A DNA stretch of 63,948 nt, the filler included, from Globobulimina sp. (Eukaryota), in assembly GCA_003354225.1 (NCBI GenBank). It is 21 parts of 21 records of this genome, joined end to end, with 100 filler letters (N's around TTAATTAATTAA, not from the genome) between each part and the next. Parts side by side here need not be neighbours in the genome. Positions count along the whole stretch, not along the records: positions 30,513 to 33,462 come from PIVH01004259.1; 20 more parts are not named here. The stretch is one strand, 5' to 3'. This document shows, piece after piece, positions 30,513 through 37,004 of the stretch (position 1 is its first letter; each line of letters opens with the position of its first letter). The notes beneath the pieces are model-generated. The model made no database searches, had not been told where the DNA came from, and worked only from the letters and a program-made list of their open reading frames with translations. A program made the translations under genes and the position numbers.

Positions 30513-31066
30513 GACACGATCATTGTCTGGGAAATAACCACGCGGCCTCCAGACGGAGCGATCATGAAACAATTTGTTAATCGGAGCGTCGCTCCAGATA
30601 TGCCAGCAGTGGCTGGTAATAACCATAAGGTTGATTTATATTTATCCGCATCGTCCATGTCATCCGACCATGAACTGAATGAGTAATAACATAAATCGTT
30701 GGTGTCATCTAAGCACGTCGCCTCCCACGCATTTAACAGCAACACGCTGACCACACTCCATATTAACCAGCCCGTGAATGCCAATAATAAATTACCAATG
30801 GAAATAACTAAATTTTTGATGGCTATTTTTTGGCCATATAGCTTCCAAAATTTTGTAGCATTTTCATCTACCGACCAATATGAAAGATGGTTGGTGTAAC
30901 AAAAGGGTGCTGGTAATTTTTTGTAACACCCAAAGCCCGATCCTTCTGGTTCTTTGCATTCTGCATCGTATTCGCTGACAGGTTTTGTTACTTCCTTTTG
31001 AGGTTCAACAAGAGTAACAAACGCTGGATTTTCTTTTTGTTTTTCATCTGTCATAGCATCCTTCAT
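30513..31066 (-). CDS. narK: NarK/NarU-type nitrate/nitrite porter (MFS), 5' part
   Basis: WSVDENATKFWKLYGQKIAIKNLVISIGNLLLAFTGWLIWS and LPATAGISGATLRL...GGR closely parallel the bacterial NarK N-terminus. Confidence 0.85.
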
Positions 31067-31352
31067 GTTCTGATGACTGAGTAGCTCACTTCAACAAGAA
31101 AATCAAACACGGAAATATTACTTCTTAAAAACCTCTTTTTAGTTTTTACACAGGACGTTTCTAAACAGCCCCAATCCTCAGAACCGTCAAAAGAGGCACA
31201 GCTGTAAAAATAGCAAATAGTATTTATTCTTCAAAAATAGCAAATAAAAAATTTTCGTTTGTGAACAACATAAAAAATCTCAACATACAATAGTAAAAAA
31301 CGCGAACAACAAAAAGCTTATATAAGTACAATATTATAAGAGAATTCTGTGC

Positions 31353-33146
31353 TTACATTGAATTTAAGTTCTTTGTATCAATATTTTGTGTGGTTGTTAC
31401 GGATTTCAGATCATAGCAAGCCTCCATATTTTGATTGGAATTATGCAATTCACGATTTGTAAATTGTATCATTAGAGCACAAAAGGAGCAGATCATTACA
31501 ACAATACCCAACACCAACCATGAATATTGTTCATCGTAATCGCTATAATTCCATGGCAAAAATATAATGAAAATAAAAAAAGCTGCGCCGGCATTGCCTC
31601 CGCTACCAACAATACCTATGACATGTCCAACTGATTTTGGTTGGATAAAAGCTACGATACTAAACGTAGCACCTTCCGCCATCTGGATACATACAGAAAA
31701 TAACATTGATAGTACAATGCATGCGGCCAACGATAAATGCCCCAACGCACCAAATAAAATAATAAAAATTGACTCTGAAAACAAAATAATAAATAAGATT
31801 TTTGCTCTCTTTACGATTGTATATTTATCACATAAATAACCACCAAATGGCCTTGCCACTAAGTTAATGCTGCTCCAAATCATCACAATTAGACCAGAAT
31901 TGATTTCATTTAAACCAAACTCTACTTGGAAATAATGTGCAGCCACCAAATAAAATGTAATTTCCACACCAAAAGAAGCAGCATAACAAGCAAATAAAAC
32001 CCATGTTCTGTAGTCATAAAATGCGTCTTCAAAATAGCCGCCAACGTTTATTCTAATACCACTGCCGGCACTGCGGTTTGGCTGGTCTGTTTTCAGCGGT
32101 TCGATTAATGGAATAGACGCTTGCGGATCCACTGCGGCATCGTCTTGCGTGCAGAAATAGTAAACAAAACATAACAGAAATAAAATAAATACGACACCAA
32201 TCAAAAACCATCTCCATGATATTCCTATTTGGTATATCATTAATGGAGCTACATAATTAACCACACCGCCACCAAAATTACCAAATCCTGCCGTCACTGC
32301 TTGTGCGGATCCCAAAATTTTGCCTGTTCGGAAATATATTAACTAGCTATGTAGCGGCGTTTGATCCGAAATGAAATTCGATCGTTTATAGCAATCTCAA
32401 TTATCGCACAATAATATGTTACATAGCAAACACAGAAACAATATAATTTATATACAATGAAGTATAGTTATTTCATCATCGCACCATATCATAATATGGA
32501 GAGATAACATTTTGACATCGAATATTATGATATGATGTGATGAAACAACATGGTACATTTTTTTGGTTGACAATAATTGAGATTGCAATGTGTAATGTGT
32601 AGAAACACTCTAATTAATATTTTTCGAACGTTAACCTGCAAACAGTCGAGTGGTGTGATACTGTGTTATTACGAAGGACGCGCCTGCAATGCCTAAAAAT
32701 ATATGACAAATAATGTAACCGACAGCGGTTTGAACCAATGACAACGCGATTAATGCGATCATGGTACAGACTAAAACCACAATGTAGCTGACTCGGGATC
32801 CAAATTTGGGGCATAATTCTGCGATTATTATACGAAATAAAATTGTTGATGTTACGGATAATGACAATGCTAACTGTTGTTGAGGCAGTGTCAAAGGGAA
32901 ATCGTCAGAAACTTCCCTGAATATGTTTGTGGTGCAAAACCATGCAAAAAAGCACCACAAAAATGTGAACCAAGTTACATGGAATGAGCGAATTGGGATG
33001 GAATTGCATGCAAACATTGTTAATGTGTCTGCTTGTTCTGGTAAAGATAGTTGCGGCACTGGTGTTTCGTCATCACCATCTTCTTTGATATCCAAGTTTC
33101 TTGCATTTGCATCGACGCCATCTGCTTTTCTTTTACTAGACTTCAT
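31353..33146 (-). CDS. NRT2: NRT2-type high-affinity nitrate transporter; intron 32324-32635
   Basis: RSFHVTWFTF, GASFVITQYH..FAG|KILGSAQAVTAGFGNFGGG, YAASFGVE, ARPFGGYLCD, AEGATF, GIVGSGGNAG. Confidence 0.92.
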
Positions 33147-33167
33147 CGAGCACTTTTTCAGTGAAAA

Positions 33168-33462
33168 ATGTTCTTAATATTACTCGCTTCATTCATCTGT
33201 ACACGTTCAAGGAGTTATGCATATAAAAACGATATATTCCATCATTTCCCTCCATCCGTGTTAAATGATGGCTTGACTGACGAAGCATTGTCGATTCAGT
33301 TTACAATTTCGTGGGAAACCTGGATGAATGCAAATATATGGTTACCAGATTGGGATTTAAAATCTAATCCCTCTCAAGCCTCCTTTTCATCACTTCGCTA
33401 TCAATTGGGCTTTGCAACGTATTCTGTAGCATCTGCATGTTCTGCGACACCGGCGTACCGAC
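33168..33462 (+). CDS. Hypothetical secreted protein (5' part)
   Basis: Hydrophobic N-terminus; ORF open to the contig end. Confidence 0.4.
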
Positions 33463-34126: not shown

Positions 34127-36211
34127 CTATTCATTGTTGAAATGAGCATTTTTAGGTTTACAGTGTGTTTGATTCCGCTTGGATCGATACCACATAAAAC
34201 AAGTAGCACCGACTGTTAATATCACAGTGGAAGCAACCAACAGTGTCTGTTTATTCATTCTATCTCGCATCCAATTGAAATAATTATAATCCAATTCCTT
34301 AACCATATACGTTGCATCTAATTTATATCCCAACTTTGCATAATATGCTCTTGTTCCAATACCCGCAATGACTGCAATTCTTTTGTATCCCTTACTTGCC
34401 GCAATGCTCTCTGCTGTTCGCATTAACTTTGTACCAAATCCATAATGCTGTGCATATAAATCATGTTTCTTTTTTGTATTAATATTATCCCTCAATTTTT
34501 CCATTTTTTTCTTATCGCCAACTTTAACCATTTGTCCATAAACATGCAACTCCCGAATCAGTGCAGCACCTTCCAACTCCGGAAAGGTTCCATAAATCTC
34601 TTTAAATTCATCCTCATATTCAACATTAATACATTGTGGCAATCTCAATCGAAGAAAGCCATAAATATATTCTTCATCTCTCCTCTCGTACGACAGAAAT
34701 ATTTCGGTCCCACCACTCGATTTATACTCCCTTTCTTTCAAAACAATTTCCGAATTATATTCATCCATTTTCTTCTCTGCATCACTTCTCATATCAATCT
34801 CAATCTTTTTTTCACGTTTCCCTCTCTTTTTTTTCTTTTTCTTTTTCTTTCGATCCACAATATTTTCATTTGCATCTCTAAAAAATGCACCAATCTCTCT
34901 GCAACGAATACATTTGCATTTCAACCCCCTTTCTTTCATTTTCTTCAACAAAACTTGTCGCAAATTAGTCACCGGGTTCCCCGCAGATATGTAATGTTCA
35001 GGAATATCTCGGATGACTCTGTTCAGCCGAATCCATGGATGGACTTTGCATTTGATCCATATCATTAACTCCACCAAATCAGCGGCAGCATATGGCACAT
35101 ACTCACCGGCCTCATTCCATTTCTTTATCACTGTCCATGGCACTGTCTGACACGGATACAATTTCCATTGATCAGCTTGCATGTCCTCGCTATGCAGCAC
35201 ATAATTTATCATTTTCCGGTCCAACGCTGGTGTGGAACCCGGCAGATCTGGCATTAAATGGAAATCTATTTTGAATGCGCAGTTTTTCAATAACCGCACA
35301 GCGCGGATCGCGTCTTCGTTGCAGCAGCCTCGATTTATCTTATCCAGAATCGCATTGTTTGTGTGTTGGATGCCAATTTGTAAACGCGTACAACCATAAC
35401 CTCGCATGCGCTGAATCTCAGAAACAGTGATTGTATCCGGTCTCGTTTCCAGAGTGAGTCCAATAATGCGACATTTTGCCAGCTCGTTCAACTTTTGCTC
35501 CTCCAACAGAGCGAATGCTGTTCGTTTCTGTTTGAATGTAGCAAAACCATCACAAAAAGTGTTGGCGCTCCAATAAATATCACGGATAAATTGCTGTTGA
35601 TATGGTATGGGATATTGCGTCCAGGTTCCGCCTAGAATTAAGATCTCGATTTTGTCCACGGGATGGCCCAAATTACGCAACGTCTTTGCACGCGAATAAA
35701 ATTGGTCAATGGCGTCCCATTCGTGTCTGTGTCCGCGACGTACGCCGGGCTCGTCTGACAAATAACTGCGTGGCATGTCGGGCTCATTTGGACAATAATA
35801 ACAATTGTGTTTGCAGGAAAAACGTTGCGTTTTTATTTTCTTGGTTATAGGGTCAATGTATTGAGGATAGGGCGAGGTGAAAATAGTGATTACTAAGACA
35901 CCGGATAATGAACGCACGCCTTTACGAATAAGGTAGCGTTGCAAGGATTCATTTGCGGGGATTTCATTTTGTAATAATAAGTGTTGATACATGACCTTTA
36001 ATTGAGCTTTGCGTGGAACCATTTTGTATTTCTTACGCAAGAGTAGTTGAGCTTGGGTCCAGTCTTTGGCTGACTCACAGTCTGTGTGCTGCACTAAATC
36101 ACGAACAAAATTTTCCATTTTCTCACGTTGCTCCATTGGTATTAATTCTGTTTTTTTTTGCCATTCGTTGCTTCCGCCTAAGTTATGCTCTTTTGTGATA
36201 GGGGAACACAT
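34127..36211 (-). CDS. ELP3: Elp3-family radical SAM/KAT tRNA-modifying enzyme with C-terminal TM anchor
   Basis: CKHNCYYC, ILGGTW, GLTLETRPD, HLMPDLPG, IRELHVYG, QHYGFGTKLM, IAGIGTRAYYAKLGY; TM LLVASTVILTVGATCFMWY. Confidence 0.93.
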   Translation of the reverse strand: MCSPITKEHNLGGSNEWQKKTELIPMEQREKMENFVRDLVQHTDCESAKDWTQAQLLLRKKYKMVPRKAQLKVMYQHLLLQNEIPANESLQRYLIRKGVRSLSGVLVITIFTSPYPQYIDPITKKIKTQRFSCKHNCYYCPNEPDMPRSYLSDEPGVRRGHRHEWDAIDQFYSRAKTLRNLGHPVDKIEILILGGTWTQYPIPYQQQFIRDIYWSANTFCDGFATFKQKRTAFALLEEQKLNELAKCRIIGLTLETRPDTITVSEIQRMRGYGCTRLQIGIQHTNNAILDKINRGCCNEDAIRAVRLLKNCAFKIDFHLMPDLPGSTPALDRKMINYVLHSEDMQADQWKLYPCQTVPWTVIKKWNEAGEYVPYAAADLVELMIWIKCKVHPWIRLNRVIRDIPEHYISAGNPVTNLRQVLLKKMKERGLKCKCIRCREIGAFFRDANENIVDRKKKKKKKKRGKREKKIEIDMRSDAEKKMDEYNSEIVLKEREYKSSGGTEIFLSYERRDEEYIYGFLRLRLPQCINVEYEDEFKEIYGTFPELEGAALIRELHVYGQMVKVGDKKKMEKLRDNINTKKKHDLYAQHYGFGTKLMRTAESIAASKGYKRIAVIAGIGTRAYYAKLGYKLDATYMVKELDYNYFNWMRDRMNKQTLLVASTVILTVGATCFMWYRSKRNQTHCKPKNAHFNNE

Positions 36212-37004
36212 AGTAAGATGGTGTTGTTCTCACGAGAGGATGGTTGGATGTAAGCTACTGTTTTTTTGGATTGCGGTCCAGAGGACCCTGATGAAGATGA
36301 GTATCCATTATCAGTAACGAATGATGTCGGTGCAAATCAGCAGCAAGAATTAGAAATTGCAATCACACAGAACCATGCTGTTGAAGAAAAGGAAAAAGCC
36401 CAACCAAATATTAGCAATGCAGGTACCTTGAATGATACAGTCTCGTGTATTTCAGACTGTATTCATTGTCAGTGACGACAATGTGGGTGTTGCTGTAACA
36501 ATCCGAAGATTCNNNNNNNNNNNNNNNNNNNNNNNNNNNNNNNNNNNNNNNNNNNNTTAATTAATTAANNNNNNNNNNNNNNNNNNNNNNNNNNNNNNNN
36601 NNNNNNNNNNNNCTGAAAGATAGCTCCGTTCTTAGTAATATTTGCGCAAAATAAAAAGTGTAATATATCCATGGTAGTATCTTTGGTGCGTACGCCATGA
36701 CGGCACAACTCATTGTATGCTTTGAACGCGAGGTTAGCGGATCGATTAACAGTCTGAATAAATCATTGGCAGAGAAATCGCAAATTCTAAGAGTGGGTGC
36801 TGAGCAGAATGTTCTCCAACACAGATTACTACCATGGTGCTTAAGTAGAAACACTTCAAATCAAATAATAATAAAATAGCAAGACAAAAAATATATAGGA
36901 TGTTGACACGATATTATTTTATATATAAAAATATTAGAAATACATCATAATTTTACATAAATATGACATGGTTGAATTGAAATGGAACACAAATTGTATA
37001 AGAA

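Follow-up and report, generated by a model that had tools for sequence, protein, structure and literature searches.

Among eukaryotes, complete denitrification has to our knowledge been reported from foraminifera alone, and we know of no established route by which nitrate and nitrite cross their internal membranes. A contig of the foraminifer Globobulimina sp. (PIVH01004259.1, assembly GCA_003354225.1) carries two nitrate/nitrite porter (NNP) genes head to tail, here called gene A and gene B, and raises the question of what each gene is, where it came from and what their adjacency means. The pair had been picked out beforehand as a tandem of a eukaryote-type NRT2 and a bacterial NarK-type porter (the original prediction). 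The contig is most probably nuclear DNA of the foraminifer, holding one member each of two NNP types already known from this group, a reading in which gene structures, linkage, subfamily placement and the conservation of nitrate-binding residues are shown and the functions are inferred.

The stretch of DNA analysed, called the window throughout (positions 1-63948), is an artificial chain of 21 pieces of 2947-2952 nt, arranged longest first and joined by 100-nt linkers (44 N, TTAATTAATTAA, 44 N). Because the linkers are artificial, sequence flanking a piece in the window is not its genomic context and arguments from neighbourhood across a linker are void. According to the linker map both transporter genes lie on a single piece, on its minus strand; 316 nt are left upstream of gene A, and the other end of the contig falls inside gene B (Table 1).

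Gene A, a spliced type-1 transporter

The reading frame of gene A begins at the ATG at 33146, is broken at 32636, where GT follows, and resumes after the AG at 32323. The two exons, joined by these coordinates, amount to 1482 nt or 493 codons, ending in a stop at 31355-31353 on the minus strand, and the sequence between them (32635-32324) has a G+C content of 29.5%. One contig each of the sequencing runs X4, X6 and X8 has exactly these 312 nt spliced out, with ends that read CT..AC on the plus strand (cut at +1), and DNA-type contigs of run X1 span parts of the same interval. This establishes the intron as real and gene A as a transcribed, spliced gene. X4, X6 and X8 come from three further studies and carry the organism codes B, C and A; no run is recorded as RNA, yet spliced gene A is present in them. 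Over the genes of this contig, their sequences are ~93-99.6% identical to the window. All three are without 9 nt (three codons) present in the window at 32060, in the central loop between transmembrane segments (TM) 6 and 7, which is an in-frame length variation between strains or species.

The best family for gene A is TIGR00886, the NarK-family NNP model, which gene B also matches. Scanned as two exon pieces, gene A matched it over positions 1-116 with exon 1 (E 1.9e-21, 76.6 bits) and over positions 122-368 with exon 2 (E 1.8e-42, 145.7 bits), each piece scoring below the curated cut-off of 311.7 bits. In NarK the nitrate site is formed by F49, R89, F147, N175, Y263, F267 and R305, a set of residues reported to be highly conserved throughout the family (PMC4432589), and gene A has all seven. 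A search with exon 2 returned 15 matches among 3602 candidates, the best being foraminiferal transcript proteins from Bolivina argentea (68% identity), Nonionella stella (~50-53%) and Ammonia sp. Gene A is a complete, spliced and transcribed type-1 NNP (NRT2/NarK1/NasA-like).

Gene B, the beginning of a NarK-type porter

Downstream on the same strand, and separated from the stop of gene A by a 298-nt spacer of 31% G+C, gene B opens with the ATG at 31054, 4 codons after another possible in-frame start, and has no stop in the 180 codons up to the contig end at 30513. The layout claimed for the locus, an intron-containing gene lying about 290 bp upstream of a co-oriented one on one contig, was thus accurate. 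Also borne out, by the family matches and by the trees presented below, was the assertion that the two belong to different NNP subtypes.

The fragment taken alone found no Pfam family at E<=1, and it scored 35.7 bits (E 5e-9) against the NarU model NF011608, where the cut-off of 836 bits was not reached, and 17.9 bits against TIGR00886 (cut-off 311.7). It also matched the Escherichia coli NarK/NarU structures PDB 4jr9, 4u4t and 4iu8 (E 7e-7 to 5e-6) in an alignment that covers the motif ahead of TM1, TM1 itself and TM2. Together with NF011608, these matches uphold the resemblance to bacterial NarK/NarU that had been read from the N-terminus, the fragment representing the 5' third of the gene. 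Among 794 candidates restricted to longer proteins, five matched at E<=1e-3; they are recorded as Nonionella stella and Bolivina argentea, are 560-626 aa long and are 58-72% identical to gene B. Full-length foraminiferal orthologues scored 220.7-279.4 bits with TIGR00886 and 227.6-271.9 bits with NF011608, and neither they nor gene B fall within the E. coli NarK/NarU subfamily as delimited by the NF011608 cut-off. Both substrate-site residues covered by the fragment (F49 and R89) are conserved. The orthologues P0004-P0007 keep 7/7 and P0008 keeps 6/7, with Cys at the F147 position. By these residues gene A, gene B as far as it is covered, and P0004-P0007 conform to the NNP family.

The loop between TM1 and TM2 of gene B is ~25 residues longer than that of E. 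coli NarK, and the original prediction had regarded this Cys-containing loop as added. This holds for a 6-residue insert bracketed by two Cys, which is specific to foraminifera: in an 18-row alignment it occurs in 5/6 foraminiferal rows (the window and P0004-P0007, not P0008) and in 0/12 other rows. It does not hold for the remaining length, most of which is already found in prokaryotic long NarK2 rows ('long NarK2' being the working name used here for a prokaryotic branch linked to narGHI). The foraminiferal gene B-type proteins further have in common a Cys-containing N-terminal tail ahead of an HLSYW motif. In the standard topology of the major facilitator superfamily (MFS) the N-terminus is cytoplasmic. 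By that topology the two-Cys loop would face the non-cytoplasmic side, either the outside or a lumen, so that a disulfide between its cysteines is plausible.

Integrity of the join

A separately built X1 contig of 1482 nt covers 30513-31690 with 0 differences and bridges the spacer; it takes in all that the window has of gene B, crosses the spacer and reaches 338 nt into gene A, and at the other end it extends 304 nt past the end of the window contig. A scaffolding error is ruled out by this contig. The support is not independent proof, because X1 may be the sample behind the assembly.

Gene B was also recovered in the other runs, with 2 differences over 534 nt in X4, 33 over 580 in X6 and 28 over 524 in X8. 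The RNA-type contigs of these runs leave 31107-31304, within the spacer, uncovered, and no inference on co-transcription is drawn from them; in all likelihood genes A and B are transcribed separately. Beyond 31092 the gene B contig of X6 has a further 693 nt of sequence unlike the window spacer. This extension may be the diverged 5' region of a related species, or another or upstream exon.

Ancestry of gene B

When the full-length orthologue P0007 was used as query, 8000 of 8000 scored candidates matched at E<=0.001, and in the best 120 of those 8000 matches the non-foraminiferal proteins were 45-56% identical. Among the matches listed, the closest non-foraminiferal relatives were P0024-P0030 (54-56%), and every match bearing an organism name was prokaryotic, the names being those of Thalassarchaeaceae, Heimdallarchaeota LC_3, Gemmatimonadales, Planctomycetota and Zixibacteria. 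Names were attached to 3/10 of the relative clusters that were checked, mostly those of marine group II archaea (Thalassarchaeaceae, Poseidoniaceae).

All trees in this work were obtained by quick or FastTree searches with no bootstraps. The tree of gene B (IQ-TREE quick search, LG+G4, 73 rows) was rooted on the short NarK of E. coli type, and the gene B trees included 25/77 of the long NarK2 genes from genome loci and 18/80 of those from metagenome loci. Eight foraminiferal rows, including the window fragment, form one clade with a support of 100 in the Shimodaira-Hasegawa-like approximate likelihood ratio test (SH-aLRT), and its sister is the pair P0025 and P0036 (SH-aLRT 100). Both belong to a 32-row clade (SH-aLRT 95) that also includes Heimdallarchaeota LC_3 and marine group II archaea and that in turn lies within a 48-row clade (SH-aLRT 99) containing Planctomycetota, Zixibacteria and Gemmatimonadales (Gemmatimonadota). 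A tree of 91 rows gave the same picture, with support of 81 and 93 for the inner clade and 99 for a 38-row clade. In both, E. coli NarK sits on a separate short branch.

The foraminiferal clade is thus nested in the long NarK2 branch (enclosing SH-aLRT 93-99, with the window fragment filling 24% of the columns), and it agrees in loop and length with that branch, for which a long TM1-TM2 loop and 530-570 aa served as further marks. To judge from this placement, the gene B family descends from the prokaryotic long NarK2 family. In the phylogeny of the NNP family that had been suggested as a check, with foraminiferal sequences included, the prokaryotic derivation proposed for gene B is supported by the nesting of its eight-row clade. 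It has been stated that the NarK-like foraminiferal form is 'closely related to archaea' (PMC8153729), with which the present tree agrees.

The sister proteins P0025 and P0036, which come from short contigs, have extra residues near an FLGNTNQ stretch in the central region, as in the foraminiferal proteins, and P0025 has a CCYK motif ahead of the first conserved motif; both are without the two-Cys insert. They may represent another eukaryotic lineage with a NarK-like gene, and the metagenome scan described below retrieved no loci of their type.

Ancestry of gene A

The corresponding search for gene A, a HMMER library search with exon 2, returned 1000 proteins at E<=0.001, 354 at 1e-10 and 13 at 1e-30, and beyond foraminiferal data sets identity to gene A was at most ~40%. 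Trees were built from representatives of 420-640 aa only, among them 40/148 of the new identifiers from this search, using FastTree (138 rows) and IQ-TREE with posterior mean site frequencies (PMSF; 72 of those 138 rows). Both recovered a foraminiferal clade (15 and 14 rows, support 100), a group of bacteria, NarK1-type partners of long NarK2 among them (support 96 and 97), and a third group (support 95) of putative eukaryotic NRT2. The label of this last group comes from one atlas look-up, a lead only, in which P0316 fell near diatom clusters, the trees containing no named eukaryotic NRT2 rows.

The foraminiferal, bacterial and putative eukaryotic groups form a three-way split without settled order in both trees. 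The free tree joins the gene A clade to the bacterial group with a support of 49.7, and a tree constrained to unite it with the putative eukaryotic group exceeds the free tree by 7.97 in log-likelihood (p 0.649 in the approximately unbiased (AU) test, p-AU). Identity of gene A is 34.6% to P0191, of bacterial NarK1 type, versus 28.2% to P0316, and 34-38% (177-235 bits) to the bacterial NarK1-type partners as a whole; the atlas cluster nearest to gene A is eukaryotic, from Streptophyta (again a lead only). In published trees the foraminiferal NRT2-like form neighbours Micromonas commoda (PMC6783311) or stands among the NRT2 of photosynthetic eukaryotes (PMC8153729). With the present trees split three ways, the designation of gene A as a eukaryote-type NRT2 is thus no more than plausible.

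Genomic context of the prokaryotic relatives

To place gene B's relatives in context, 80 genome loci and 80 metagenome loci were scanned with E. coli probes. A long NarK2 gene was found in 77/80 and 80/80 of them, respectively. NarG, NarH or NarI was present in 60/77 genome and 50/80 metagenome loci (110/157), many of the others being short contigs, and in 45/77 and 48/80 the long NarK2 gene was immediately preceded, on its own strand, by a second NNP gene, at least 1500 nt of upstream sequence being available in only 63 and 58 loci. From these narGHI and upstream NNP contexts it follows that long NarK2 supplies the NarK2 member of the classical narK1-narK2 pair in respiratory nitrate-reductase clusters.

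The upstream partner is gene A-like in nine loci (L022, L025, L032, L037, L038, L091, L095, L097 and L155; 31-38% identity), and in L010 a gene A-like gene lies downstream instead. Three loci of Betaproteobacteria (L056, L062 and L048) have three consecutive NNP genes ahead of narG, a NarK1-type gene being followed by two NarK2 genes, one long and one short and E. coli-like.

Other features of the contig and the window

The features of the contig are collected in Table 1. On the opposite strand, 22 nt away from the ATG of gene A, begins a third open frame, which has a hydrophobic, signal-peptide-like beginning and runs off the contig; no Pfam family was found for it (33168-33461, plus strand), and it is not part of the transporter pair. 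The next contig in the window has an unbroken 700-codon frame (34127-36229, minus strand), which we take to resemble the Elongator subunit Elp3 (radical-SAM and acetyltransferase). When NNP proteins were compared with the window by tblastn, only genes A and B themselves were found, and E. coli NarG/H/J/I, NapA/B/C, NirB/D/C and CysG had no match in the window at E<=1e-3.

Table 1. Features of the contig carrying genes A and B, in window coordinates
Feature	Position	Strand	Basis
Contig with both genes	30513-33462		Bounded by N/TTAATTAATTAA linkers; linker map and sequence
Gene A exon 1, ATG at 33146; N-terminal tail and TM1-TM4	32636-33146	-	Translation, TIGR00886, splice border from X4/X6/X8 contigs
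Gene A intron, 312 nt	32324-32635	-	GT..AG; skipped in X4/X6/X8 contigs, covered by X1 DNA-type contigs
Gene A exon 2 and stop (31353-31355); TM5-TM12	31353-32323	-	Translation, TIGR00886, 68% identity to Bolivina argentea transcript protein
Spacer, gene A stop to gene B ATG, 298 nt	31055-31352		Bridged without differences by the 1482-nt X1 contig
Gene B 5' fragment; N-terminal tail, TM1, long outer loop, TM2	30513-31054	-	Translation, NF011608, NarK/NarU structures
Gene B residues 112-122 in the TM1-TM2 loop (ATCLDDTNDLC), with the 6-residue two-Cys insert	30689-30721	-	Alignment
Gene B Arg158, counterpart of E. coli NarK R89 (TM2 nitrate-binding arginine)	30581-30583	-	Alignment; role of R89 from PMC4432589
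Third open frame, divergent, 98 codons to contig end	33168-33462	+	List of open frames; X6/X8 contigs over 33168-33461

Discussion

Comparison with known systems

The occurrence of two transporter forms in foraminifera, and its interpretation, are largely in print (PMC6783311, PMC8153729). Two Nrt clades of Globobulimina have been described, one grouping with bacteria (p 0.352 when eukaryotic monophyly was put to the AU test) and the other with a eukaryotic neighbour, within families that are strongly expanded in the foraminifer genome as a 'multitude of diversified homologs' (PMC6783311). Two Nrt subclades have also been found across rotaliids (PMC9231491), and NRT2 and NarK/NarU-like NNP forms have been reported in N. 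stella and B. argentea, with NNP proposed for nitrate/nitrite transport in denitrification (PMC8153729). Genes A and B are of the same two subtypes, gene A being 68% identical to a protein of B. argentea and 53% to one of N. stella, and gene B 58-72% to proteins of both species; they would correspond to the published clades I/II. The difference is that one gene of each type here adjoins the other. Their physical linkage, in the order of bacterial narK1-narK2, looks new: a word search of the main texts of PMC6783311, PMC8153729 and PMC7490399 found no mention of this adjacency, although the supplements may list contig names.

The pair shares with bacterial narK1-narK2 a type-1 NNP gene followed by a NarK2-type gene on the same strand and the retention of substrate-site residues in both gene types. 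It differs in that the contig is without narGHJI, gene A has an intron, a 298-nt spacer separates the genes, the RNA-type contigs show no sign of a single transcript of both, and no single prokaryotic subgroup accounts for both genes. Comparable arrangements are the NarK of Paracoccus denitrificans, in which narK1 and narK2 are fused (PMC5217062), and the tandem narK-narT of Thermus thermophilus (PMC6394727). The N-terminus of gene B aligns with E. coli NarK/NarU, F49 and R89 included, whereas E. coli NarK belongs to the short branch and has 463 aa and the gene B family belongs to the long branch, with 530-626 aa and longer loops. Gene A resembles eukaryotic NRT2 as a 12-TM type-1 NNP with a signature of the A-G-[FW]-G-N-x-G-G-G type and all seven substrate residues, but in the present trees its clade does not fall within the putative eukaryotic group, and it is only 28% identical to the diatom-like P0316.

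Origin and meaning of the adjacency

That the join is an assembly chimera, or gene B the product of a prokaryotic contaminant, is extremely unlikely. Such an artefact might be expected in a highly fragmented assembly (21 contigs of ~2.95 kb in the window), for a gene whose relatives are mostly prokaryotic and at a join whose sole DNA-type bridge, X1, may stem from the assembly's own sample. However, the separately built X1 contig spans the join without a difference, the closest relatives of gene B (58-72%) are foraminiferal transcript proteins with the same eukaryote-only N-terminal tail and Cys insert, and runs of three other studies hold gene B (94-99.6% identity) as well as spliced gene A. 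Contamination in particular is argued against because the prokaryote-derived NarK-type gene is physically linked, on the same contig, to an intron-bearing gene. It is very improbable, too, that the foraminiferal lineage acquired both genes at once, as the narK1-narK2 pair of a single prokaryotic nar cluster, and that they have been adjacent ever since. The order and orientation of the bacterial pair, the greater identity of gene A to bacterial NarK1-type partners (34-38%) than to P0316 (28.2%) and the best free tree, where gene A joins the bacterial group with a support of only 49.7, speak for such a relic. Yet the long NarK2 genes that have gene A-like partners (L091, L095, L097, L155, L022 and L037) fall outside the 38-row clade holding the foraminifera (SH-aLRT 99), and the genes in that clade whose context is known (L086, L087, L088 and L113) have an NNP partner of another subgroup, the known contexts excluding the closest relatives (the P0024 group, P0025 and P0036). 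The constraint uniting gene A with putative eukaryotic NRT2 scores higher, by 7.97 log-likelihood units (p-AU 0.649), and in two published trees that include named eukaryotes the NRT2-like form stands with these (PMC6783311, PMC8153729); the spliceosomal intron of gene A is compatible with either origin.

Because the non-congruent trees speak against transfer as a block, the adjacency is either a secondary juxtaposition, perhaps selected, or a chance neighbourhood in two expanded families. It is doubtful that secondary juxtaposition has produced a functional unit, the module of the original prediction, in which uptake or storage and nitrate-nitrite exchange would be co-regulated for eukaryotic nitrate respiration as a counterpart of bacterial narK1-narK2. 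In favour of this are the shared strand, the 298-nt spacer and the order with type 1 first and NarK2-type second, an order (NNP, then long NarK2) that recurs in 45/77 and 48/80 of the prokaryotic loci, including the nine with a gene A-like upstream partner at 31-38% identity. Contigs of both genes also occur in the same three runs that hold spliced gene A, and two specific families lying within 300 nt of each other would, by judgement rather than computation, be improbable by chance in a large genome. On the other hand, this is a single instance on one 2.95-kb contig of one organism, and the strong expansion of both families (PMC6783311) makes chance neighbours likelier. Shared regulation of A and B finds no support here, and both forms are steadily expressed across oxygen regimes (PMC8153729). 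A stronger version, in which the head-to-tail pair is a conserved, selected unit that rebuilds the bacterial narK1-narK2 arrangement in a nuclear genome, placing a nitrate importer beside a nitrate/nitrite exchanger of prokaryotic descent, and in which both genes are copied and controlled jointly to serve nitrate storage and respiration, is unlikely; such a pair could have formed by secondary joining or, less likely, been kept as a fragment of an imported operon.

The preferred reading remains that of a foraminiferal nuclear contig with one member of each known NNP type, whatever brought them together. In that arrangement gene A would take up nitrate into the cell or a nitrate store, probably coupled to protons, and gene B would exchange nitrate for nitrite across the membrane of a nitrate-reducing compartment, its two-Cys insert lying on the non-cytoplasmic side and perhaps forming a disulfide. 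A precedent for this division of labour is Paracoccus denitrificans, where NarK1 is a nitrate/proton symporter and NarK2 a nitrate/nitrite antiporter (PMC5217062). Several observations weigh against the reading. It has been argued that sequence does little to explain whether net uptake or exchange takes place, and that E. coli NarK and NarU are capable of both (PMC5217062), because of which the assignment of symport to gene A and antiport to gene B is tentative. In the oxygen treatments both forms were expressed at steady levels (P > 0.05), with no anoxia-specific induction (PMC8153729). The contig (30513-33462) is without a nitrate reductase gene, only the 5' third of gene B is present, its continuation beyond 30513 lying off the contig, and the curated cut-offs are missed, that of TIGR00886 (311.7 bits) by the gene A pieces, the gene B fragment and the orthologues, and that of NF011608 (836 bits) by the gene B fragment and the orthologues.

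For the biology of denitrifying foraminifera, the contig provides a clean genomic example of known transporter types, with a validated intron, a linked NarK-type gene and a foraminifer-specific two-Cys insert. Should the order of the two genes turn out to be conserved, a protist would offer one of the few known cases in which transporter genes are functionally clustered in an operon-like way, and the order would point to which of the many paralogues work together.

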